Shown: piece by piece, positions 5,727 through 56,628 of the stretch
How the letters are laid out: each line of letters starts with the position of its first letter
Position numbering within the stretch: position 1 is the first letter of the stretch
Sequence record: MG748547
Direction: 5' to 3' (one strand)
DNA from: Escherichia phage EP75
DNA: 64,000 bases
The notes under the pieces: generated by a model
Seen by the model: the letters and a program-made list of their open reading frames with translations, nothing else
Databases searched by the model: none
Told to the model about the DNA's origin: nothing
Program-made: the position numbers and the translations under genes

Positions 5727-5936
5727 ATATTATTTCTCACGTGTTAGCAAACTTGACTACATAATAATGTCATGCTCTGTTTAGACCAAATAAAATATTT
5801 TACTTGTTGAATAAAAATCGCTTTCTTGTTGAACAATCCGTGCGTAATATACGAGTTGTGAGCTTTGCGAGCAACGAGTATTATCACGAGCAAAGCGAGT
5901 AGACTGATAAAGAAAGGTTTTATTAAAACAGAATAT

Positions 5937-5944
5937 TATAAATG
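5937..5944 (+). promoter_or_regulatory. late-promoter-like box TATAAATG upstream of gene 45
   Basis: TATAAATG (1 mismatch to TATAAATA) followed by hairpin AAATGCC-GTCA-GGCATTT; about 120 nt upstream of gp45 ATG, so assignment is weak. Confidence 0.25.
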
Positions 5945-6065
5945 CCGTCAGGCATTTATTTATCGCGCGTAGGGCAATTTATCACTTGTTCTATAACTAC
6001 AAACACGCGATACTAATTTGCGTCAAATATGACTTGAACCCCACTATATTTTGAGGATACAACTA

Positions 6066-15082: not shown

Positions 15083-17291
15083 ATCATTAACATTTAAGAA
15101 TGCGGTTGCGACTGTCGCGCCGTCTAACCATGTAATCGTTGTGGATATCTCCGGTTCCATGTATCGTTCACTTCCAGAAGTTCGTAAGCATCTGAAGGAG
15201 AACCTGCCTTCCCTGGTGAAACCGGAAGATACTGTGAGCATCCTTTACTTTTCATCTCGCGGTGATTTCGGAACGGTATTTGCCGGACGTCAGATTAACA
15301 GTGCAACTGATCTCACTGAGATCAATAATCTAATTGACCGCTTCCTGCAACCGTCGGGATGTACGGGATTTGTAGAACCTCTGAAATTGGCTGCTGAAAC
15401 CGCGTTGAGTCTGAACAAACCTGGTTATGTCAATAACCTGGCGTTCATGACCGACGGTTATGACAACTGCTGGCGCTCTAATGAAATTCTGGCAGCAGCT
15501 GAAGTACTGCCCAAAGCGTTTGATAACATTACCTTCATCGAATACGGTTGGTATTGTAATCGCGAACTGCTGGCTCTGATGTCCGAGCGTTCTGGCGCGA
15601 CCCACGTGTTTGCCGAAGGTCAGACTGAATATCAGACCGAACTGGAAAACGTACTGAAATCATCTACGCCGAAAGTGGTTGTTGATGTTCCCCTGGTTTA
15701 CACTCATGCCATCTACGTTGAAAACGGCGTGGCAACTGTGCTAGCCATACAGCCAGATGAAGAACACCCGATTGGCCACGTGAGCATTCCTGAAAGCGTT
15801 TCTCAGCTGTGGGTTGTAAACCCCAACATGATCGACCAGCTGGACAATCTGGCCGACATCCAGGCGGCATACGTGCTGGCATTTTATGGCGTGTATACCA
15901 TGGATGCCGATCTGGTTTGGGCTGCGCTGAAGAAGACAGGCGACGTCCGCTTCATCAAACAATACAGCAACTGTTTCACCAAGCAGGACTATTCCAACAT
16001 CAAAGTCGACCTGACCCAGGCTATCGTGGATGAAACTCTGCGCGGCGTAGATGGTATCGATTACAACATGGTTCCAGCTGAAGATGCGACGACCATTGTT
16101 GATGTCTTGACCTATCTGGCCGAAGCCGACGTCTCTGTTGTCACTAAGCATCCGTTGTTCTCTTACAACAGCATCGGTCGCGGAACTGTGCAGAAAGTTG
16201 ATGACACAGAAGACAAGCTGGCTGAACAAATCGCCGAAGCCAAAACCAAAGCAGAGCGTAAAGCGCTGGCTCTTAAACTGGCCGAGCACGAAGATTGGAC
16301 GCCGGAATTTACTCCGGTTGACGACAAAGGGATTGTCCCAATTAGCAATCTGGTCTACAATTCAGAGCGCCCTAACATCAGCATTCAGACCGTTCAGCAC
16401 GGGACGGTTGTTGTGCCGGAGTTCGTACAGAAGAAATATGAACTTCCTGAAGAACTGGGAACCTGGCGTTATCGTAATTACACCATCGTCAAAGATGGCA
16501 TCATCAACCTGAAGACGATGCCGATTACTGCTGAATCTCCGATTGTCCGAGCTAAGGTTGTCCAAGATTTGACCGCCATGGGCGTTAATGTGTTTGGTGG
16601 TCCGGAAATCTTTATCGTTAATTTAGAAAGCGTTCCAATGGTCAACCGCGCCATGACCAAGAATATCAGTGCTGCCGAATTCTTCGCCGACAACGTTCGT
16701 CGCGAAGCGCTGAAGGCAAAACAGAAAGTTCTGAAATTCTATCGTGATGAACTGGTTGGCAAAGGTAATGCAACAGGCCTGGCGTCTAAATATGGTAAAG
16801 AAGCCGCCGATTTCTTGTCAGCAAATGGCATTCGTGACTACGGGTTCTCACCGAAAACTACTTCTGTGGAATCAACCGACGTCTACATGAGTCGTGAACT
16901 GAACGTGAAAATCAAAGGTGCTTCGTCGCTGCCGAGTATTGCGTCTGTTGTTAAAAAGCAAGCAGACGGTAAAAAACTGAATGTCGCTGATCAGTTGATT
17001 GCTAATGCTCTGGCCGAATACAACGCTTTTGTTAAATCTCCAATGATCACCAGCGTACCTGAAGAGACTCAGAAAAAGCTGATTGAAAGTTGGATTGGCG
17101 ACGCAGCAAAAGCAGCCATCAACGAAGTCCGCGCCCTGAACAAAACGCTGTCTAAAGTAGTTTACGGCATCGTCGCTGGTCATGGTTGGTTCACTGATTT
17201 GGATCTGGAAGAGTCTACGATGGATGTAGAAGTTGATGGGGTGAAATACACCGTCACTGCCGAACTGGCCGAAAAAGAAATCAAGATCTAA
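15075..17291 (+). CDS. von Willebrand factor type A (vWA) domain protein, 739 aa
   Basis: ATG at 15075 (MIESLTF); complete MIDAS motif VVDISGSM plus downstream MTDGYDN; long C-terminal region of unknown function. Confidence 0.7.
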   Translation: MIESLTFKNAVATVAPSNHVIVVDISGSMYRSLPEVRKHLKENLPSLVKPEDTVSILYFSSRGDFGTVFAGRQINSATDLTEINNLIDRFLQPSGCTGFVEPLKLAAETALSLNKPGYVNNLAFMTDGYDNCWRSNEILAAAEVLPKAFDNITFIEYGWYCNRELLALMSERSGATHVFAEGQTEYQTELENVLKSSTPKVVVDVPLVYTHAIYVENGVATVLAIQPDEEHPIGHVSIPESVSQLWVVNPNMIDQLDNLADIQAAYVLAFYGVYTMDADLVWAALKKTGDVRFIKQYSNCFTKQDYSNIKVDLTQAIVDETLRGVDGIDYNMVPAEDATTIVDVLTYLAEADVSVVTKHPLFSYNSIGRGTVQKVDDTEDKLAEQIAEAKTKAERKALALKLAEHEDWTPEFTPVDDKGIVPISNLVYNSERPNISIQTVQHGTVVVPEFVQKKYELPEELGTWRYRNYTIVKDGIINLKTMPITAESPIVRAKVVQDLTAMGVNVFGGPEIFIVNLESVPMVNRAMTKNISAAEFFADNVRREALKAKQKVLKFYRDELVGKGNATGLASKYGKEAADFLSANGIRDYGFSPKTTSVESTDVYMSRELNVKIKGASSLPSIASVVKKQADGKKLNVADQLIANALAEYNAFVKSPMITSVPEETQKKLIESWIGDAAKAAINEVRALNKTLSKVVYGIVAGHGWFTDLDLEESTMDVEVDGVKYTVTAELAEKEIKI

Positions 17292-20206: not shown

Positions 20207-21016
20207 GTGATGATTATTACTAAAAAGATCGCCGAATCGATCGTTGAAAAGAATAAGATGTTCGCGCCCAACAAAGCAAAGGTCATTCTGATTCACGAAG
20301 ACGGGCGCGTCATCTTCGCTGAGAAGTTTGAGCAGGGTTGTGCTTTCTGGTTCGCAGATACTATGCGCGAAAGCAAGCTGCAGGGCATCATCTATAAATT
20401 AACCCTGGTTGCCAAGCGCAATGATCAGGGTGATTGGGTTACGGTCTGCGATTTCAGCTCTAAGGTAGAAGCTAAACCCAAAACTCGCCAAGAAAGGATT
20501 TTAGAGGCTCAGGAAAAACTTCGGGTTGCTCGCACATCATCCGCGGAGAAGCCGGAAATAAAACCAGCCGTTATTCCTGTCACCAATAATCCGCTCCCAC
20601 CTGTGGGTCAAAAGGCTTTCGAACAATATGTTGAAAAGAGAAAAGAAGAATCTATGAAGACTCCGGTAGAAAATAATGATGAGTCTGAATTTATTTCAAT
20701 ACGACAGTTGTGCCCGCAAGAACAACGTTATTCTTCTCCAAATGATTTATTTGTGTCATTCCGATGCAACGGAAAGATCATATTGTGTAAAACTCTGCGT
20801 GAACAACTACCATGGCCTAACATCAATATGATGGTGAGTCGCAATTTTAAACGATTTGCTATTAGTGAAGGGAACGATTATCCCGTAAACAAGAGCGGAA
20901 CGTATGCCAACAAACATATGTGTGGTAAGTTGTCTTTCCCTAACGATTCCGGAACCATCCGCGTTCGTTTAGAATGGGATGAAACCCTGAACATGTATGT
21001 TGGTGATATAAAATAA
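20207..21016 (+). CDS. hypothetical protein
   Basis: 269-aa ORF, no family recognised. Confidence 0.45.
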   Translation: MMIITKKIAESIVEKNKMFAPNKAKVILIHEDGRVIFAEKFEQGCAFWFADTMRESKLQGIIYKLTLVAKRNDQGDWVTVCDFSSKVEAKPKTRQERILEAQEKLRVARTSSAEKPEIKPAVIPVTNNPLPPVGQKAFEQYVEKRKEESMKTPVENNDESEFISIRQLCPQEQRYSSPNDLFVSFRCNGKIILCKTLREQLPWPNINMMVSRNFKRFAISEGNDYPVNKSGTYANKHMCGKLSFPNDSGTIRVRLEWDETLNMYVGDIK

Positions 21017-21073: not shown

Positions 21074-21742
21074 ATGAATAAGAAGAGTCGTATCATCATC
21101 GGCGCGGATCAGGGAAATCTGTATTTTGATACAACTGGTGCTATTGCCCACGCCATCCTTCCAACAGGTATTTCTGTTTATTGTGTCGAACATCCAGATC
21201 CAGCGATCAAACGACTTTGTTACATCCATCGTGAAAAGGGATTGATTGTATTACCGGAAGGCGCAATTATGCGCGCTCGTTCTTGGCCGATCGATTTTAA
21301 TTCCATGACCGCCAGAGAGATTGACGCCCGTTTCTTCGCATACAATATGAATCGAACTTTAAGGAACGAAACTCAAAGAGTTGCCCATTTCGATAATGAA
21401 ACATATACCGTGACATTAGAATTTCGCGTTCTTGGTGAAGCTCTTCAGGTAAAGAAAACGAGTTGGGCAACCGAAGGGACGTTTACCAATGATTATGCTC
21501 TTATCGATAGATTGTGTAATCGGTTCCGAATTAGCCTGACTGCGAATGAAGATTTGGGAGAATATGTATCATGGACAGCTCGTTCTCCACATATGAATGG
21601 GATCATGATGGAGAGCGGGACTCGTAATCGTGCTGTTCTTCAGCTGCTGTTGTTAGATGCGTATTCTCGCAATCCTCTGGAATATTTGTCTCGAGAGCAA
21701 ATCGACAACGCTCTTTCCCATTGCAATCGTCTGGAGGTGTAA
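21074..21742 (+). CDS. hypothetical protein
   Basis: 222-aa ORF, no family recognised. Confidence 0.45.
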   Translation: MNKKSRIIIGADQGNLYFDTTGAIAHAILPTGISVYCVEHPDPAIKRLCYIHREKGLIVLPEGAIMRARSWPIDFNSMTAREIDARFFAYNMNRTLRNETQRVAHFDNETYTVTLEFRVLGEALQVKKTSWATEGTFTNDYALIDRLCNRFRISLTANEDLGEYVSWTARSPHMNGIMMESGTRNRAVLQLLLLDAYSRNPLEYLSREQIDNALSHCNRLEV

Positions 21743-21743
21743 T

Positions 21744-22031
21744 ATGTCCGGCGTATGGTGTGATGTATTATTAGTGAGATTTTCAAACGGGATGGATAAC
21801 CAGATTATTTCATTCTTTTATCCTGTTCCCTTTTCTTCTATGGGTCTGACTGTCAAGCGCGTTCTTGACATAGAAGAAAAACTCAACGCCATGCCGTATA
21901 TGGCGCGACCACACGTGCTGGGTTGTGAACTGTTAAACGAAATGATGATCGATGAGAATCTTGTTGAAACAATTATCACGCGTGAACAGATGAAAACCAT
22001 ACTGGCTCAGGGAGAACCCCATGTCGAATAA
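21744..22031 (+). CDS. hypothetical small protein
   Basis: ATG at 21744 with GGAGGTG SD, in frame with ORF 21657..22031. Confidence 0.35.
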   Translation: MSGVWCDVLLVRFSNGMDNQIISFFYPVPFSSMGLTVKRVLDIEEKLNAMPYMARPHVLGCELLNEMMIDENLVETIITREQMKTILAQGEPHVE

Positions 22032-22341
22032 ACCGTTTGAACTTAAATTTCGCGTTTGGCATATTCCCCAGGTTCCTGGGATCGCTTTTCATGTTGAGGT
22101 TCCAACATTTGAAGAAGCGCAGCGCCTGAAGAATGCTCTGGGTGATTATGATTTGTTCCAGTTCAACAACAATATCAAGCCGGATTATTGCAATGCTTCG
22201 GGCATTCAGATTTATCAACATGATCTGACCGATGATGATCTTAATGATATGGGTCTGGATGATCGTTGGGTTGATATGGAAGATGTTGACGAACTCAACG
22301 ATTATTTCGAGCATCTGCGCAGTACAGGGTGGGAAATATGA
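22021..22341 (+). CDS. small acidic protein, function unknown
   Basis: 106 aa; C-terminal half very rich in Asp/Glu. Confidence 0.4.
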   Translation: MSNKPFELKFRVWHIPQVPGIAFHVEVPTFEEAQRLKNALGDYDLFQFNNNIKPDYCNASGIQIYQHDLTDDDLNDMGLDDRWVDMEDVDELNDYFEHLRSTGWEI

Positions 22342-22646
22342 TTTCAAAATATATTGTAAAGCCTGGGGATACTCTGTCCAGCATCGCTCTAAAATTATAT
22401 GGTGATGCCCAACAGTATATCAAATTAGCCAGATTCAACAATATCCAAAACCCAGGCCATATCGCGGTTGGTCAGGTTATTTGTTTACCCACACCTGTCG
22501 AAGACAAAGAACACATTATGATTCCGGTTCAACCGACTCAGAAGTGTTTGGATGCGATAGCTGGTTTATTTCGGCCAGGTTTTTGTGATGGAACTATTGA
22601 ACGTCACATTTATCAAGCAATTGTGGAAAACGCAGGTGTAAAATGA
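22338..22646 (+). CDS. LysM domain protein
   Basis: YIVKPGDTLSSIALKLYGDAQQYIKLARFNNI matches LysM peptidoglycan-binding motif; ATGA overlap upstream. Confidence 0.55.
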   Translation: MISKYIVKPGDTLSSIALKLYGDAQQYIKLARFNNIQNPGHIAVGQVICLPTPVEDKEHIMIPVQPTQKCLDAIAGLFRPGFCDGTIERHIYQAIVENAGVK

Positions 22647-22852
22647 TCGGATTAATTCGTTACCTGTTCATATTCGTAATTTCAACATTCATTTTATTTT
22701 TCTTTTTCAAATACTTGAAAGAGACTAAAATCTACCGAAGTAAACGTTGGCGCAAACGGGTGAGGGCAACTTTCCTGCTGCTGATTTCTTCGGTTACAAT
22801 AACCGCACTCACATTGGGTGCTTATATCTACATTTTTGAAGGGGTACATTGA
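22643..22852 (+). CDS. small integral membrane protein (two predicted TM helices)
   Basis: 69 aa with two hydrophobic segments separated by a basic loop; ATGA overlaps on both sides. Confidence 0.45.
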   Translation: MIGLIRYLFIFVISTFILFFFFKYLKETKIYRSKRWRKRVRATFLLLISSVTITALTLGAYIYIFEGVH

Positions 22853-23643
22853 TGTTCAAGAAACTGGTGTTCGGTGCAATTATGGTTCTGGCTGCAAGTC
22901 TACTTTCTGGTTGTGGTGGCGTTATCGATGAAGGTAACGTCGGCGTTCGTACCCAATGGGGTGAAGTAGACATGAACCCTGTAACGGCGGGGATCTACAC
23001 CAGCTTTGTTTCAAGCGTGGATGTTTACACGACCAAAGAAGCCGTTGTGAGTCTTACTAAAATGACTCCAAAGGCGAAAGACAACCTGACTCTGGAAGAC
23101 TTGGATGTAGATGTTTATTACACACCCAACGTCGCAAAGGTTCCGTGGTTCCATACCAAATTTGCTGGCCAGAGCGCTGAACTCGATGATGGCACGATAG
23201 CGGTGGGTTTCAATCTGGTTAAAACTGCTGCATCATCTTCTTCAATGGACGCCGTTTCTTCTCTTGATTCTATGACAATTCACACCCAACGTGCTGAATT
23301 GGAGAAGATGATTAAAGATCGCACTCAGCAACAATTAGAAACTGCTGCGCCTGGTATGTTCACAATTACACGCGTGTTAGTGAAAAAGGCGCTGACAGAT
23401 CCTTCTATTGAGCAGTCTATCCGTGATAATGTTATGGCGGACAAACGATTGGATACGGCAAGAAAGAACGTTGAAATTCGCGAGCAAGAAGCCCAAGCGA
23501 ACCAAAAACTGACCACCTCGCTGACGCCTGAATATCTACAACATGAATATAACATGGTGTTACAATCATGCGCCAACAGTGGAAAATGTACTCTGATCGT
23601 TGACGGATCCGGCTCAGGTAAAATGCTGAACGTCGGCAAATAA
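22852..23643 (+). CDS. lipoprotein with SPFH (band-7/HflC-like) domain
   Basis: Signal peptide plus lipobox LLSGC; EGNVGVRTQWGEV resembles the SPFH N-terminal motif of HflK/C; coiled-coil C-terminus. Confidence 0.5.
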   Translation: MFKKLVFGAIMVLAASLLSGCGGVIDEGNVGVRTQWGEVDMNPVTAGIYTSFVSSVDVYTTKEAVVSLTKMTPKAKDNLTLEDLDVDVYYTPNVAKVPWFHTKFAGQSAELDDGTIAVGFNLVKTAASSSSMDAVSSLDSMTIHTQRAELEKMIKDRTQQQLETAAPGMFTITRVLVKKALTDPSIEQSIRDNVMADKRLDTARKNVEIREQEAQANQKLTTSLTPEYLQHEYNMVLQSCANSGKCTLIVDGSGSGKMLNVGK

Positions 23644-32606: not shown

Positions 32607-33224
32607 ATGACGATGACAACGTTGAAGGCCATGGCCTTGTCCGTGACCTTTACCATTGCCAGCGGGAGTGTGCACGCTTCCCAAAGTACCACCCAATGTG
32701 ATTATGAGTTTTCTGATCAACAACTTTCAACCATGGCCACAGCCTATCACGTGGGCAAACAACAAGACCTTGGTTTCACCCTCGCCGCAATATCATGGAG
32801 GGAAAGCCGCGCCGGAGAAGATGTTGTATCCATGCGGAATAACCTGAAATCGGCTAATATGGGGGCATTTCAAAATCGCGTCCAAACCGTCGGGAAACGG
32901 GAGGGATGCAAAACACAGAAGTGTTACGCCAATGTTGCGATCAAATTACTGGTCAATCAAGAATATGCTGCCAATGCTGCCCTTGATGAAATGAATTTCT
33001 GGCTAGAATATCATAACCAAAACATCCGCAAATCCCTTTCCTCTTACAATGCTGGGTTCAATCGTAACCAGAAATCCAATTCTTATGCAGCCGACGTCGT
33101 GAAGAAGGCTAAATATCTTCAACGATGTGTGTCTTTCAAAGGCATGGCAATAAACCCAAAGGTCGACCCAGGAGTGATCGCCATGAATAAGCGCACGATT
33201 GAGAAACTCAAGAGGACCAGATAA
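32607..33224 (+). CDS. secreted lytic-transglycosylase-like (SLT) protein
   Basis: Signal peptide; ISWRESRAGEDV (catalytic Glu-Ser), GAFQ and SYNAG resemble SLT-domain ES / GLMQ / AYNAG motifs. Confidence 0.45.
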   Translation: MTMTTLKAMALSVTFTIASGSVHASQSTTQCDYEFSDQQLSTMATAYHVGKQQDLGFTLAAISWRESRAGEDVVSMRNNLKSANMGAFQNRVQTVGKREGCKTQKCYANVAIKLLVNQEYAANAALDEMNFWLEYHNQNIRKSLSSYNAGFNRNQKSNSYAADVVKKAKYLQRCVSFKGMAINPKVDPGVIAMNKRTIEKLKRTR

Positions 33225-48141: not shown

Positions 48142-49767
48142 TCATGCGTCTTTACCACCAAAGTTGCCGCCATTATCCTCTAGTTCCGGTTTTATATCAA
48201 TTGGACCAGGACCAGAAGTAGATACTGGAGTTGCCCCAGCGCGTGATGCAGCACGACCAGCACCTTCAGCATATTTGATGTTGCCTTCAATAGTCTGCGC
48301 CACCGACAACTTATCACAAACTATTTCACTAGCCAGTATTTTAGGCACTTTCAAAGTATTGGAAACTTCCAACATCTCGCAGATGATACGCATCACGTTT
48401 TGCGCTTGAATTTCGGCCAGCTGTGAAAATTTCAACAGCGCCGTGCCAGCAACCACATTGGAATAGTTCGATGAATGTAGATGATAGACCTCACCTGTCT
48501 TGCGCTGAACTTCAGTCCCACCAATGGTCAGGTTGTGATCACGACCAACATAGTAACGTTTGTCAAACATCGTCAGATCATAGTGATCTTTAACTGATTT
48601 ATTGACCACGTCCCCGTCAGGAAGCATCTGCTTATAAGACCCCGAGGAGTGCATCCAATGGAGACGTTCCCCGCCTGGTGTGTCATCAACCTCCATAATA
48701 TGTCCCGAACGAGATGCCATGACATTGTTGTAAGGATAACGAGACCCGCCAGCAGAAGGAACCGACACCTCTCCTGTGTTATCAATATCTTGAACACGCC
48801 CAGAAGGAGGCGGAGTTTCCTGAACTTTTGGTGTACGATCAGGGATTGGCTCAGACCATTTACCATTTTGTTGTGTAGGAGCCGCCGATGCTGTCGTAGC
48901 AGGACCAGGCCAACGATAACCCAACACAGATGAGCGGCTGAAGCGACTCACCTTCACAGAATCTGATTGGTTGCCTCCAATACACCAAACATAATTGGCA
49001 TCGAATTTCTGCACGAACGCAACGTGTCCGAATGTTGGGTTGTTGCCACGCCGGAATACAACAACAGCGCCGTAGCGGGGTTCCGACAAAGGGGAACCCC
49101 ATTGCAAATATGAACGAGCCAAAGCCGAGCGCGTTGAAGTGTATCCTGCTTGGATCAACACCCATCCCACAAATGATGCACACCAGCTGACTTCATCTTC
49201 CGAAGCGCCCAAAGATGTTGTCTTGTGATATTCCAAAATCCTTGGGTTATTATTGAATTTACCAGAATATTCTTTGACACCTAATTCACCACGAGCCACT
49301 GTCATCCATTTCTCAGGATCATAACCGTCCACAGGAGGTTGAGGTTCTGGTTGAGGTTCGTCTTCAATCTTGACAGGAACATTTTCAACGGCGTTATATT
49401 TCTGCCTTTCTATAGATTGAACGACCTGGCCCAGCGCCAACGGGTTTGTGTCTGAACCATCTGTTGGTGTCGCCGCTGGCCAAACCCAGGCGATACGAAT
49501 ATTTTGGTATGCTTCATCCAAAGCAAAACCCATAACATCCGACCCGACTGTAATACCCGTTGGAGACCAGCCTAAACCTGCCGAGGAGGCGTTAGATGCT
49601 GGCATGAGCATTTTACCCCAAGGCAATAATTCGGTAGGTAAGAGAGTGGTATCTTCCGTGTGTACACCATAGATGCGCACAGCGACGCGCCCGTTCTGGT
49701 CGGGATCATTCACGTCTTCAACGCGCCCGTAAAACCAACGCAAGTTGTCTAACATATTGAAACCCAT
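48142..49767 (-). CDS. 5: baseplate central spike (gp5-like) with CHAP/NlpC-P60-like hydrolase domain
   Basis: N-terminus LRWFYGRVEDVNDPDQNGRVAVRIYGVHT aligns with T4 gp5 OB domain; central WCASFVGWV ... GHVAFV resembles a Cys-His peptidase rather than T4 lysozyme; Gly/Ser-rich C-terminus. Confidence 0.75.
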   Translation of the reverse strand: MGFNMLDNLRWFYGRVEDVNDPDQNGRVAVRIYGVHTEDTTLLPTELLPWGKMLMPASNASSAGLGWSPTGITVGSDVMGFALDEAYQNIRIAWVWPAATPTDGSDTNPLALGQVVQSIERQKYNAVENVPVKIEDEPQPEPQPPVDGYDPEKWMTVARGELGVKEYSGKFNNNPRILEYHKTTSLGASEDEVSWCASFVGWVLIQAGYTSTRSALARSYLQWGSPLSEPRYGAVVVFRRGNNPTFGHVAFVQKFDANYVWCIGGNQSDSVKVSRFSRSSVLGYRWPGPATTASAAPTQQNGKWSEPIPDRTPKVQETPPPSGRVQDIDNTGEVSVPSAGGSRYPYNNVMASRSGHIMEVDDTPGGERLHWMHSSGSYKQMLPDGDVVNKSVKDHYDLTMFDKRYYVGRDHNLTIGGTEVQRKTGEVYHLHSSNYSNVVAGTALLKFSQLAEIQAQNVMRIICEMLEVSNTLKVPKILASEIVCDKLSVAQTIEGNIKYAEGAGRAASRAGATPVSTSGPGPIDIKPELEDNGGNFGGKDA

Positions 49768-49788
49768 TAGTCAATTAGAATCATGGGT

Positions 49789-49796
49789 TATTTATG
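49789..49796 (-). promoter_or_regulatory. late-like promoter box (CATAAATA on - strand)
   Basis: Plus-strand TATTTATG; 22 nt upstream of the gp5-like start codon on the - strand. Confidence 0.35.
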
Positions 49797-50090
49797 GCGG
49801 GGATTTGAAATCTGTCGAATAGTAATATTATAGGAAGCTCTGCTTCCGTTCAACTTTATTCTTTTCATTTCTACTCGCTGAAGCTCGTAACACCGCCTTG
49901 ACAGGCAGTCCCATTCCAATGCCATGGAGGCATAAAGGCGAGGAAAATACTGTACACCTCAGAACATGCGTAGAAAAGGATTATTTTTGCTTCAAAACAA
50001 ATTCAAACCCCAATTTACACAACACTTACTTCAGCAACAACGGTTTTATAGCAATTTAAGGTTAAACGTTCCTGTCTTAACCTATAAAAC

Positions 50091-50125
50091 AGTTAAGCAA
50101 AGAAAACCCCACATTACGTGGGGTT
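50091..50125 (-). terminator. intrinsic terminator (- strand)
   Basis: AACCCCAC...GTGGGGTT hairpin; on the - strand it is followed by TTTTCTTTGCTT; downstream of the - strand gene 50275..51078. Confidence 0.55.
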
Positions 50126-50274
50126 GGAAGATTTCTTAGACAATCGGATCTTCAGTGTCTCTGTTAGCAAATCAAGATGCCAAGGCATCGACTCGCTTAT
50201 TTCAAATATGCTATAGCCATGTGCCTTTAATTCGTCACACATCACAAAGTAGGAGAGTAAATCAATTTCAAAAA

Positions 50275-51078
50275 TTAAATGAAAATTTCAGTGACACTGT
50301 TAAATTTGACTTCGTGTTCTTTCCCACACGAAGGACATTTAATTTTCGTCGCGTAACGGATACGAGGAATCTTTTTAAAGAAATCGTCGGATATATCTTG
50401 AACAATCTCAGATTCAATATTTTCCCCCACCCATTTAATGAATTCATCCTTGACACGTTGACGTTCTTTAGCAACATCGGGAGATATGCCAGGCTCTGCT
50501 GGATTCTCTACTTTCCAAACCTGACCATCATCGTCATACAAACAATCAATAAAGGTCGCGATCATTTGCTCCACAGATGATGCTTCGTTGAGCACTGAGG
50601 CGTCCGAGAAGGACGGTTGACGCATCTTGATGTGATAGCCACCAGGGAGGTCAAATGTTTCCCTGAAGCCTTCTGGGGACACGCATTTCACTTGGTTGAG
50701 GGGGATCGGTAAAACAAGTTCTTGACCGCATTCTTTAAGGCCAGAAACTGGTTCTTCGCCTTCATCTGTGGCAGCTGGAACTTTGTTGTTGCATTTGTAA
50801 CGTATCTTCATGATCTCACCGATAGATATACAGCGCATCTTTAAAAATACTTCTTCAGTAACACCGATCGGCAGTTTACTAAAGGGAACCCCAGCGTCAA
50901 CACAACTATCAAATAGTTGCTCCAGCGTCGCCACACGTTCACTCATAGGAGTGTTCGGATCAGCAACCTGAAGTAACATGGTCTGTTGCCCTGCTGTGAA
51001 GGCGCGGTATTTGATCACAGTCGGCCAGAAATCACTTTTATGTGTTCTCTCAGTTTTGGGCAATGATGGTAAATTCAT
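50275..51078 (-). CDS. hypothetical late protein, probably virion/baseplate-associated
   Basis: 267 aa on - strand immediately upstream of gp5-like gene; C-terminal CPSCG zinc-ribbon-like motif; exact late box upstream. Confidence 0.5.
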   Translation of the reverse strand: MNLPSLPKTERTHKSDFWPTVIKYRAFTAGQQTMLLQVADPNTPMSERVATLEQLFDSCVDAGVPFSKLPIGVTEEVFLKMRCISIGEIMKIRYKCNNKVPAATDEGEEPVSGLKECGQELVLPIPLNQVKCVSPEGFRETFDLPGGYHIKMRQPSFSDASVLNEASSVEQMIATFIDCLYDDDGQVWKVENPAEPGISPDVAKERQRVKDEFIKWVGENIESEIVQDISDDFFKKIPRIRYATKIKCPSCGKEHEVKFNSVTEIFI

Positions 51079-51106
51079 AATGTATCTCCACGGTATATTG
51101 TAATTG

Positions 51107-51114
51107 TATTTATA
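51107..51114 (-). promoter_or_regulatory. T4-type late promoter box TATAAATA (- strand)
   Basis: Plus-strand TATTTATA; 29 nt upstream of the start of gene 50275..51078 on the - strand; divergent from + gene starting at 51128. Confidence 0.5.
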
Positions 51115-54904: not shown

Positions 54905-54933
54905 AAAGCCCCTTCGGGGGCTTTTTAGTTTTT
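54905..54933. terminator. bidirectional intrinsic terminator between convergent genes
   Basis: AAAGCCCC-TTCG-GGGGCTTT with T-tract on + strand and A-tract upstream, serving both gene 32 and the - strand gene. Confidence 0.65.
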
Positions 54934-55869
54934 GACAACATCCTGCAACAATCCGAGTAAACTACTCTTCTCAGACGCCGTCAGGTTATCATTGCCTAAT
55001 ATATCCCTCTGGATGCCGATAGAGATCCTTTCGAAATCAGCCAGGCTGATACCAGCCAGATTGTTTACAAGCTGATCGAGTTGCTTATAAGCCAGCAGGG
55101 CTTCACCTGTGAAGTTTCCTTCTTTGATCTTTTTATACAGCTGTCCGGCTTTTGACGCAGCGGTTTCCCAGTCTCCGGAAGCAAGAGCATCAGTAATACC
55201 CAAAGGAAGAAAATCGCTGGCGAGGCTGCGCGTTTCATATTCAGTCTCCGATAATACTTTGTTATAAGAAAAGGAAATGTTGTACTGATTAAATTGATCG
55301 GCGGCGCTTTTATCCAGGTCTATAGAACTGAAGTTGATGGGGTGAGCCTCAGTCACATAAACGCGATGAACAACCTGATCTTCTGTATCCATTTGTTCTA
55401 TACAAATATCGGTCACGAAATCTTCATAATAACCCATCTTGGTTGTGTATGGGTCGAATATCAGATTCTTCCATTTGTCCATGACCGACTTTTCATAATA
55501 ATCGTTGGCGAGGAGGAACGACAACTCCAGATCAATGTTCGTCTTGTTGTTCGGCATTTTAATGTGGTTGCCGTTGTTGGTCATGGGAGTAGTGTCAATC
55601 CCTGTACCAGGTAAAGATGCGACCATACACATCATTTGCAGGGAACGAGATGTTTGGTTTGTCCCTCCAAAGAATGCGTTTACAATACGGGCGCTTTGTT
55701 TGAACAGATCCCCAAATGATGAAGATGAAGGATACGCGTTCCCATCATTTGCTAGTGTTGCATTGGAATCAAATATCCCAGGCGGCAACGGAATTGTAAC
55801 ACGAAATCTGTTCTTGCGGGAAATACCCCGTTGAAGCAGTTGCGTTAGAAAATTGCGATAGTCTTCCAC
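54925..55869 (-). CDS. hypothetical late protein
   Basis: Long - strand ORF; proposed GTG start at 55869 preceded by GGAG SD and exact late box; upstream in-frame part of ORF overlaps the promoter and the divergent + gene. Confidence 0.4.
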   Translation of the reverse strand: MEDYRNFLTQLLQRGISRKNRFRVTIPLPPGIFDSNATLANDGNAYPSSSSFGDLFKQSARIVNAFFGGTNQTSRSLQMMCMVASLPGTGIDTTPMTNNGNHIKMPNNKTNIDLELSFLLANDYYEKSVMDKWKNLIFDPYTTKMGYYEDFVTDICIEQMDTEDQVVHRVYVTEAHPINFSSIDLDKSAADQFNQYNISFSYNKVLSETEYETRSLASDFLPLGITDALASGDWETAASKAGQLYKKIKEGNFTGEALLAYKQLDQLVNNLAGISLADFERISIGIQRDILGNDNLTASEKSSLLGLLQDVVKN

Positions 55870-55893
55870 GATGAGGACTCCATTTAAATAATA

Positions 55894-55901
55894 TATCTGT
55901 T
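55894..55901 (-). promoter_or_regulatory. T4-type late promoter box TATAAATA (- strand)
   Basis: Plus-strand TATTTATA; 25 nt upstream of proposed GTG start at 55869. Confidence 0.45.
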
Positions 55902-55923
55902 GATATTTATAAGGAGTTGACAA

Positions 55924-56628
55924 ATGGCTAAGAACGCTATGGGTGAAGAAGACCCGTTGTTGCTTCCCGCCGAGATGGACGCCCCAGAACTGGTCAAGCG
56001 TTACATCCGCAAATATCGTCAACATTTTGGGCCGGAAGCGAAGCGTAATATCCGTCGTTCTCATGTGTGGTTTATGGAGCGCGTGTCGAAAGATGCTAAC
56101 TTATCTCCGAATCACATGATGAAAGCATTCGCTGAAAATAAACGTCCTGTTCAGGGTGTGCGTTATATTGTTGGTCGCATGTATTATTTCAAATATGATG
56201 CGCTGACTAAAGATGAACTCCCGTATTGGGATATGTATCCTCTGGTGTTCTTCTTCAATTTTGTGAAGGGGGATGGAGTGAAATTCGGTGAACGTGGTGT
56301 AACCTATCTTTATGGCCTAAACCTCCATTATTTACCGCCTAAACTCAGATTGTTGGTATTTGAAGATCTCATTAAATTGAGAAATGAACGGGCATATCGT
56401 TCTAAAACACGTTTGAGACTTACCTGGGATGCGCTAAAGCGGTTTGCGAATCACCCTTTGTACAATCATTGTGTCAAATTATACCGCGCAGATCAATTTC
56501 GTTCACAACTTTATGAAATTGAACCGCAATATTGGGAGGTCGTTTTGTTTATGCGTACTGCTCGATTCCAGAAACAGAGTCAGATGTCTGTTTGGAAGGA
56601 CGCACGTCGTAAACACAAAAATGGTTAG
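55924..56628 (+). CDS. hypothetical protein
   Basis: 234 aa, strong SD AAGGAG, basic C-terminus; no family recognised. Confidence 0.5.
   Translation: MAKNAMGEEDPLLLPAEMDAPELVKRYIRKYRQHFGPEAKRNIRRSHVWFMERVSKDANLSPNHMMKAFAENKRPVQGVRYIVGRMYYFKYDALTKDELPYWDMYPLVFFFNFVKGDGVKFGERGVTYLYGLNLHYLPPKLRLLVFEDLIKLRNERAYRSKTRLRLTWDALKRFANHPLYNHCVKLYRADQFRSQLYEIEPQYWEVVLFMRTARFQKQSQMSVWKDARRKHKNG

Follow-up and report, generated by a model that had tools for sequence, protein, structure and literature searches.

What is encoded in the 507 bp that lie upstream of the gp5-like gene of Escherichia phage EP75, between that gene and the gp26-like baseplate hub gene? We addressed this question in a 64,000-nucleotide (nt) stretch of sequence record MG748547 (the window), where the tract spans positions 49768-50274 and had been proposed, in a first reading of the sequence (the original prediction), to hold a small RNA, a replication origin or a regulatory leader. 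The window comes from a Vi01-like phage genome (genus Kuttervirus, family Ackermannviridae) and shares 98.8% identity with Escherichia phage ECML-4 and with Salmonella phages Marshall and Maynard; phages of this family (Vi01, CBA120 and the Kuttervirus relatives) are widely used in biocontrol and therapy. The tract belongs to a three-gene minus-strand island made up of the gp26-like hub, gp5-like and gp25-like genes, and all relevant signals are therefore read on the minus strand. As described below, it is a composite late-gene control region of that strand, with a folded RNA domain in its gp5-proximal half and a small gene at its hub-proximal end. The earlier observation is confirmed in part, and its interpretation is likewise supported in part. 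Neither the terminator nor the late promoter is unusual, and both had been predicted before in related phages. As far as we searched in Rfam 15, in the record annotations inspected and in the literature, the gp51-like mini-gene with its AUU start and the family of pseudoknotted RNA cassettes are undescribed.

The tract is strongly conserved, the outcome of a check that the original prediction had named itself: it is matched by 281 phage records and retains ~74% identity over ~450 nt between genera (Taipeivirus, Limestonevirus and Agtrevirus), compared with 67-71% identity of the adjoining hub protein between the same genera. Folding of the whole tract gave z = -2.1, with 3 of 100 shuffles as good; as the excess over shuffles is only modest, the signal lies in conservation and not in raw stability. 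The tract had been described as entirely non-coding, which does not hold, as 162 of its nt form a conserved 53-codon minus-strand open reading frame (ORF; 50275..50114). Because this frame is coding and the conserved gp5 start lies at 49755, the really non-coding part shrinks to ~358 nt (49756-50113). It had also been taken for the longest intergenic tract of the window. This is true as annotated in Maynard, where the gap measures 519 nt and is the longest of the window-equivalent region, but the non-coding remainder is close in size to the 339-nt tract at 5727-6065.

A pseudoknotted RNA core conserved by compensatory changes

The structured RNA core spans ~75 nt (49943..49869, minus strand; 54% G+C) and is nearly invariant across Kuttervirus, Taipeivirus and Aglimvirinae. 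It comprises two helices, P2 and P3, an H-type pseudoknot and a hairpin that we call hairpin B. P2 pairs 49933-49929 with 49923-49919 around the loop UCCAU; its strands are AUGCC/GGCAU, and CAGCC/GGCUG in a second copy of the core found upstream of the gp6-like gene (the gp6 copy, described below). The pseudoknot joins CCAU of this loop (49927-49924) to AUGG (49914-49911), which become CCCU/AGGG in both Taipeivirus copies and in phage CRW-SP2. P3 (49909-49892) is formed by ACUGCCU and AGGCGGU, with changes from C-G to U-A and from U-A through U.G to C-G. Hairpin B (49888-49873), with the sequence ACGAGC-UUCA-GCGAGU, contains the successive pairs A-U, C-G, G.A, A.G, G-C and C-G, closed by a loop of 3-4 nt that is replaced by an 8-bp extension in the gp6 copy.

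Covariation was assessed on an alignment of 18 distinct sequences from two paralogs and three lineage groups (Kuttervirus, Taipeivirus, and Aglimvirinae with CRW-SP2). Standard pairs were found in all 342 cells of this alignment, and six pairs displayed compensatory change, among them AU/UA to CG/AU in P2 between the paralogs and AU to CG in the pseudoknot of 7 sequences. None of 500 shuffles reached the covariation score, and slid-strand controls were 25-51% paired. P3 also contains G.U pairs (columns 32/51 and 34/49) that would be A.C mismatches on the other strand, and the fold therefore belongs to the minus-strand RNA. The pairs next to the G.A and A.G positions of hairpin B covary (C-G has become U-A in Aglimvirinae, and G-C has become A-U in Bue1); the G.A and A.G positions themselves never turn into Watson-Crick pairs. 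The fixation of these two positions amid covarying neighbors points to a specific RNA motif, and hairpin B is probably a recognition site.

With compensatory helices beyond both shuffled and slid controls, the core has the general properties of a structured non-coding RNA, and we are confident, if short of certain, that the element functions as an RNA at all. A small RNA or a regulatory leader, two of the candidates initially put forward, both fit the covariation-supported helices of a 72-nt domain, the G.U pairs that only the minus strand allows and the conserved promoter-like site just upstream. The pairing between CGCCTT and AAGGCG reported at the same time needs to be redrawn: both strings are present, but AAGGCG pairs with CUGCCU in the compensated helix P3, whereas CGCCUU is missing from the paralogous copy and fails to track the compensatory change seen in Taipeivirus.

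The Rfam and tRNA searches suggested earlier were negative for the window as well as for the tract. Rfam 15 gave no match at gathering thresholds in the whole window (the best hit in the tract, at E 1.3, was merely the terminator), and ARAGORN found no tRNA or tmRNA gene in the window. Several other readings of the core were discarded. A helix proposed by RNAalifold, P1 (UCGC/GCGA), competes with hairpin B and is absent from the paralogs. Hairpin B of Aglimvirinae reads UUGAUGAGCGAAGCGAAU, which recalls a hammerhead ribozyme, but the Kuttervirus core differs (GUUACGAGC..GCGAGU) and Rfam gave no match. A reading as a MotA box fits one genus only.

Paralogous cassettes in the Ackermannviridae

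A BLAST repeat search within the window revealed no second copy of the core; one was found in a full related genome, and a third by motif search. In Maynard, 49 nt of the core recur with 94% identity 120-165 nt 5' of the gp6-like wedge gene, in sense orientation, and this copy is kept in all genera sampled. A covariance model of the domain (R1) scores 82 bits at 49940..49869 of the window and 77 bits at the Maynard gp6 copy. By this model there are two full domains per genome, and none outside the Ackermannviridae among the loci tested.

The third copy is a reduced paralog (5813..5966, plus strand) that lies in the 339-nt tract 5727-6065 before the sliding-clamp gene (ATG 6066). Its promoter-like site (5813-5850) is followed in turn by two hairpins with tandem G.A pairs (~5855-5875 and ~5886-5900), by an A-rich linker and by a hairpin at 5938-5959; P2, the pseudoknot and P3 are missing. 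R1 matches its hairpin-B part at 15.5 bits, and the cassette is conserved in Kuttervirus and Taipeivirus. The hairpin at 5938-5959 is terminator-like, and its 5' arm contains TATAAATG.

More distant copies are reduced in other ways. In both Miltonvirus copies and in the gp5 copy of Bue1, a second G.A hairpin stands in place of P2 and P3, and the Vibrio phages possess a single G.A hairpin (GGGGU-GAGCGAAGCGA-ACCCC) that immediately follows a TATAAT and lies ~30 nt 5' of the gp5 ATG. No module other than the tandem-G.A hairpin is common to all Ackermannviridae copies, and all cassettes face the next gene in the same orientation.

Searches beyond these loci yielded little. A metagenome scan with the hub-protein profile returned only very distant phages (22-28% identity), too distant for RNA covariation. 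Matches to the core pattern in genome collections, which were not scored with R1, were judged to be chance, as they came from diverse, mostly G+C-rich genomes unrelated to phage hosts. Six viral contigs from outside the Ackermannviridae that matched the pattern were likewise attributed to chance; four scored at most 18.7 bits with R1 and two gave no match at E up to 1. A relaxed structural search for the G.A hairpin returned mostly background, and the site upstream of gp5 was the one convincing match within the first 100 kb of Vibrio phage D506. Elsewhere in D506, 5' of the clamp gene (16040-16100, plus strand), two adjacent hairpins are capped by GC-GAA-GC and GC-GGA-GC (GAUUGCGAAGCAAUC and GAGCGGAGCGU); tandem G.A pairs are not kept there, and the hairpins may be a degenerate relative of the two-hairpin cassette.

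Signals on either side of the RNA core

Upstream of the core, a promoter-like site (49988..49949, minus strand) consists of an A-tract (49988..49984), the hexamer TTTTCT (49977..49972), a 17-nt spacer and the hexamer TACAGT (49954..49949). The same architecture, with a variable spacer of exactly 17 nt, is present in all three paralogous cassettes and in the six genera sampled. The T-rich hexamer varies between TTTTCT, TTTTCA and TTTCTT. In the -10-like hexamer, T1, A2 and T6 are invariant and positions 3-5 vary freely, Bue1 having a perfect TATAAT; this pattern characterizes a sigma-70 -10 element rather than an RNA helix. In ~155 kb (the whole Maynard genome and the window), the composite motif is confined to the three cassettes, and within the window it gave 4 overlapping matches at 2 sites, compared with 0.3 matches in shuffles. 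RNA synthesis is predicted to start near 49942, in which case the folded domain would be the 5' end of the RNA. The site may need an activator.

Downstream, the core is followed by an unstructured A/purine-rich linker, AGAAAUGAAAAGAAUAAAGUUGAAC (49872..49848), which is A-rich in every genus and copy although its sequence itself is not conserved. Next comes the stem-loop T2, GGAAGC-AGA-GCTTCC (49847..49833). This is the GGAAGC-TCT-GCTTCC hairpin already noticed on the other strand (49833-49847), and it is well conserved: it is paired in 100% of cases, with two covarying pairs, and the variants GGAAGC, GGATGC, GGCTGC and GGCGGC are each accompanied by a matching partner. T2 was not called by a simple terminator scan because its U-tract is interrupted, and in the gp5 copy it lacks the U-tract of an intrinsic terminator. 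It looks like a weak terminator or attenuator, leaky in the gp5 copy. The TATAAT directly after it (49832..49827) is possibly a second sigma-70-type -10 element.

A predicted T4-type late promoter of gp5, CATAAATA (49796..49789), is located 34 nt before the ATG at 49755. Its ATAAATA (49795..49789) is invariant in 13 sequences from 6 genera, and a gp55-like sigma factor and a clamp, which such a promoter would use, are annotated in Maynard. Perfect T4-type late promoters with TATAAATA are also found 5' of the hub gene (51106-51113, minus strand) and of the gp2-like gene (55904-55911, minus strand). In the genome paper on phage AG3 (PMC3121705), gp2, gp5 and gp6 had each been assigned a predicted late promoter, and these promoters have an extended consensus in common.

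The gp5-like hub/lysozyme (tail-lysozyme) gene, which encodes CHAP and Gp5_OB domains, is listed at 48142..49767 (minus strand). However, the listed start at ATG 49767 is Kuttervirus-specific, whereas the ATG at 49755..49753 (MLDNLRWFYG...) is kept in all aligned genera and is the annotated start in Maynard. Public records differ in this start (Maynard versus Sajous1). A 7-bp hairpin, AACCCAU/AUGGGUU (49761-49789, minus strand), reaches from the end of the late-promoter box to the GGG just 5' of the gp5 start. The late transcript would begin inside its 5' arm, an arrangement that recalls the leader of the T4 lysozyme gene. As a conserved control element this hairpin was rejected, since it is broken in a second Kuttervirus subtype.

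A gp51-like mini-gene that overlaps the hub stop codon

The hub gene itself (50275..51078, minus strand; PF12322, E 1.7e-51) is directly followed by the conserved 53-amino-acid (aa) frame mentioned above, whose AUU first codon shares its A with the last base of the hub UAA stop. The ORF listing reports this mini-gene only from an internal GTG at 50245. In a six-genus alignment, however, codon-like conservation is found directly 3' of the hub stop codon, and the 53-aa translation matched 342 phage records by tblastn. In all five distant records opened (Vibrio phages D506 and K469, Bue1, Serratia phage 3M and EspM4VN), the match starts exactly at the last base of the hub stop, and reconstruction of the frame in the remaining genera places its beginning at the same base. 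The first codon is ATG in Aglimvirinae and the Vibrio phages, where an ORF of 49-60 aa is annotated, ATT in Kuttervirus and Taipeivirus, ATC in Miltonvirus and ATA in Erwinia phage Bue1. The ten codons 5' of the internal GTG or ATG used by ORF finders are conserved at the protein level (xFExDLLSYFxM), and differences among them number 46, 66 and 124 at codon positions 1, 2 and 3. From this conservation and the third-position bias we conclude that these codons are translated.

The one-base overlap with the hub stop is the arrangement expected for translational coupling, and we infer that the mini-gene is translated by re-initiation at UAAUU with a near-cognate start. Alternatively, it may be made as a -1 frameshift fusion with the hub protein. 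Most Kuttervirus records examined leave the mini-gene unannotated or annotate it from an internal start codon, apparently because an AUU, AUC or AUA start overlaps a stop codon. Non-AUG re-initiation could be studied on this mini-gene in a clean natural setting.

The protein belongs to PHROG 9633 (E 5.6e-37), where no function is assigned, and it matches PHROG 634, 'baseplate hub assembly catalyst', weakly (E 1.6e-3); it has no Pfam match. In T4, gene 51 directly follows gene 26, and a small ORF directly 3' of the gp26-like hub gene is at the position expected for gene 51. The likeness to T4 gp51 consists of this position and the weak PHROG 634 match, but the protein has 53 aa here against 249 aa in T4, and homology at this E value is marginal. 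T4 gene 26 reportedly contains an internal AUU start, which would place a rare AUU start in the same gene neighborhood; there it is an internal in-frame start, whereas here it would be the first codon of a separate, overlapping ORF.

A plus-strand ORF at 50155..50580 had been called probably spurious, and we agree. We take it for an antisense shadow of the hub and gp51-like frames, open in several genera and broken in CRW-SP2; it overlaps two conserved minus-strand genes and has no independent support.

Terminator and post-terminator segment

The intrinsic terminator T1 has a stem at 50125..50105 (minus strand), AACCCCAC-GTAAT-GTGGGGTT, with 9 pairs, 5 of them G-C, and a U-rich tail, TTCTTTGCTT, that extends to 50093. 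A G+C-rich stem-loop, a U-tract and a location downstream of an ORF characterize it as rho-independent. It is among the calls of a terminator scan (2 terminator-like sites compared with 0.6 expected), it is annotated in Maynard and Magnus, and the Mooltan, Magnus and Menlow records list a terminator under the tract match. Between genera its stems have changed in a compensatory manner (AACCCCAC/GTGGGGTT, AACCCCGC/GCGGGGTT and AATCCCGC/GCGGGATT). The terminator foreseen for the upstream minus-strand gene is real, but it follows the mini-gene, whose stop codon sits in the T1 loop, and not the hub gene directly.

A long nested palindrome described at about 50040-50095 is also present, with 13-nt arms (50039-50051 and 50082-50094) that are 92% complementary. 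It is genus-specific: across 13 sequences the inner stem is paired in 84.5% of cells and the outer stem in 57%, and the latter is not conserved as a structure outside Kuttervirus. Two boxes in this post-terminator segment (50043..50098, minus strand), GCTTA..TGT..AGGT and ACC..AAATT..TATAA(A/C/T), are kept in all genera, with TATAAA at 50050..50045. They could be an extended -10 promoter or an operator.

A cis-acting leader as the preferred explanation

What might the RNA domain do? Our preferred explanation, which we hold with moderate confidence on comparative grounds, is that it is a cis-acting 5' leader of a pre-late transcript. Host RNA polymerase would start at the sigma-70-type site before late transcription, so that the folded domain would form the 5' end of a long gp5 transcript reading through the leaky T2. 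The tandem-G.A hairpin would be recognized by a protein or the ribosome and would determine how stable this long transcript is or how it is translated, with P2, the pseudoknot and P3 as a lineage-specific elaboration. Late transcripts would begin downstream of the element and escape its control. The gp6-like wedge gene would be under the control of the same cassette, and the clamp gene under that of its reduced version. Late transcription in T4-type phages itself requires the clamp, and the clamp gene therefore needs pre-late expression. We favor an action in cis because of this need, the strict orientation of the cassettes, the plain 5' untranslated region (UTR) arrangement in the Vibrio phages and the leaky-looking T2 of the gp5 copy.

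Two T4 systems offer partial parallels. The dual-promoter late genes e, soc and 49 of T4 have long pre-late transcripts with a translation-controlling leader, and their late transcripts start downstream. Here, too, one structural gene has two predicted promoters on its 5' side, a sigma-70-type one further away and a late one of the TATAAATA type close by, and the leader would belong to the long transcript only. The T4 leader, however, sequesters the ribosome-binding site, whereas here we detected no conserved pairing to the start region of gp5 or of gp6, and the present leader is an autonomous pseudoknotted domain with paralogs. The mRNA leader of T4 gene 32 contains a pseudoknot that is an autoregulatory operator. 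Here, too, a phage mRNA would begin with an H-type pseudoknot as the presumed nucleation site of a protein and continue with an unstructured A/U-rich stretch, but the gene 32 leader shares no sequence similarity with the domain described here, which precedes baseplate and clamp genes and not a gene for a single-stranded DNA-binding protein, and which has the additional hairpins P3 and the tandem-G.A hairpin.

Several observations weigh against a leader. The covariation comes from few independent lineages, and the pseudoknot is represented by one covarying pair. The -35 region of the upstream site is poor (TTTTCT matches TTGACA at 2-3 of 6 positions), a simple consensus scan did not call the site, and the promoter is only predicted. 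T4 baseplate genes are classically late-only, which makes a pre-late promoter before gp5 or gp6 unexpected. The alignments show no conserved pairing by which the core could alternatively engage T2 or the ribosome-binding site of gp5. A candidate anti-Shine-Dalgarno pairing of the P2 loop (CUCCAU) with AUGGAG of gp6 has 6 bp in Kuttervirus and Aglimvirinae but is uncompensated in Taipeivirus, and was rejected. The hairpins after the gp6 and clamp copies, with their U- or A-rich flanks, look more like terminators than T2 does, and a stand-alone small RNA would account for this no less well than a leader. Finally, our literature searches found nothing on transcriptomes, small RNAs, transcription starts or protein binding in Ackermannviridae.

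The main rival to a cis-acting leader is a set of stand-alone small RNA genes, each giving a 105-160-nt non-coding RNA with its 3' end at the next stem-loop; such an RNA would work in trans, base-pairing through the exposed CCUCC loop or titrating a protein, and its location would be incidental. Each genome contains three paralogs, and every cassette, with its promoter-like site, folded body and stem-loop, is built like a small-RNA gene. CCUCC in the P2 loop is invariant and anti-Shine-Dalgarno in sequence, and the gp6 and clamp copies end in hairpins flanked like intrinsic terminators. Yet T2 of the gp5 copy has no proper U-tract, the Vibrio phages have the shared hairpin simply as part of the 5' UTR and no terminator between it and gp5, every genome keeps its cassettes strictly oriented towards the next gene, and no target complementarity was shown to covary, so we regard this as possible but doubtful. 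A riboswitch-like sensor, an origin that forms an R-loop and a DNA-only cassette are all less likely than such small RNAs. In a riboswitch-like or protein-sensing attenuator, the core would be an aptamer and T2 an expression platform choosing between termination and read-through into gp5 or gp6. The highly conserved single-stranded bases (UCCAU and GGAAUGGGA), the pseudoknot, the peripheral stem of variable length in hairpin B (2 bp versus 8 bp) and the two copies per genome, each 5' of a gene and followed by a hairpin, would suit a sensor. The alignments, on the other hand, show no conserved terminator/antiterminator alternative, the downstream late promoter would bypass the switch, Rfam has no match and the downstream genes are structural, with no obvious metabolite link; we consider an attenuator improbable. 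By a little, we would sooner entertain the broader but still unlikely idea that P2, the pseudoknot, P3 and the tandem-G.A hairpin form a new class of sensor RNA, responding to a ligand or a phage protein, in a small post-transcriptional regulon that coordinates gp5, gp6 and the sliding clamp.

An origin of replication, the remaining candidate of the original prediction, gained no positive evidence. In an origin of the T4 oriF/oriG or ColE1 type, primer RNA would start at the promoter and the purine-rich stretch 49872..49848 would lie in a persistent RNA-DNA hybrid. T4 has several origins, two of them beside baseplate genes, and three copies per genome would resemble this multiplicity; a promoter, a non-coding transcript and then a purine/A-rich tract of 18-42 nt are fitting anatomy. 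But the conserved and covarying feature is an intramolecular RNA fold and not an unwinding element, the A-rich stretch is short and separated from the promoter-like site by the 54% G+C folded domain, the tract has no iterons or DnaA boxes, and the GC skew follows gene orientation, changing at 51.1 kb and not here, which leaves an origin very unlikely. Slightly less credit still is due to an element that acts at the DNA level, be it a repeated terminator/promoter cassette or the site of a DNA-binding regulator, with a functionless RNA fold. T4-type phages are said to carry promoter-early stem-loop (PeSL) regulatory cassettes, repeated intergenic units of a stem-loop terminator and a sigma-70-like promoter, which T2 and its TATAAT resemble; the present cassettes differ in having three copies only, conserved positions before core genes and a long covarying RNA domain. 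A role of the DNA alone would suit the post-terminator boxes, which are kept in sequence but not in structure, and the extended similarity between the late-promoter flanks of gp2, gp5 and gp6 (PMC3121705). Against this, four helices are kept by compensatory changes, strand-specific G.U pairs included, and the hairpin-B motif is not a DNA palindrome and never exchanges G.A/A.G for Watson-Crick pairs. Least credible of all is a micro-protein encoded in the core, either in sense from ATG 49933 (MPPWHWNG...) or as a 45-aa ORF (49925..49788). The first frame is open for ~20 codons in the gp5 copy of the four genera examined, but the gp6 copy has no ATG there despite conserved bases, a Shine-Dalgarno sequence is absent, and the ATG of the 45-aa ORF is lost in Taipeivirus (CCCTGG). 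Because 1- and 2-nt indels in the core break the frame and shift conserved bases between frames across genera, and because the paralog lacks the ATG, coding was ruled out on either strand.

Antitermination elements were considered as well. Like lambda nut and HK022 put, the domain would be a promoter-proximal structured RNA 5' of terminators, and Aglimvirinae copies contain CGCTCTTA, the lambda boxA core; here, however, the late promoter lies downstream of the element. A lambda-type nut site was rejected, as the boxA string is found only in Aglimvirinae copy 1, the corresponding strings being CGCCTTTA in Kuttervirus and CGAGAAGC in the gp6 copy. We know of no N-like or Nun-like homologue, although no search for one was made.

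If the RNA controls the expression of baseplate or clamp genes, it would add a new layer of timing control to T4-like development. Were it a sensor-RNA regulon, DNA replication status would be coupled to tail assembly in Ackermannviridae, because the clamp itself activates late transcription. Otherwise, the result still corrects the annotation of hundreds of genomes, and it provides a covariation-supported pseudoknotted motif absent from Rfam together with a tandem-G.A module shared as far as the Vibrio phages.

Further observations

Some minor features were noted along the way. The listed ORF 54925..56064 probably starts further downstream, past the late promoter at 55904-55911. ORF 32607..33224 contains, at 33107-33123 (plus strand), 17 nt (GGCTAAATATCTTCAAC) that recur exactly in the late-promoter flank of the gp6 copy; they may be an internal late promoter for the next gene. 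In Maynard (KF669654.1), outside the window, ~2 kb without an annotated coding sequence (21457-23457) lie beside the tRNA cluster, and a string resembling the G.A hairpin, UGUGAACGAAAGUGAAUA, is located between two tRNA genes at 20279-20296 (minus strand).

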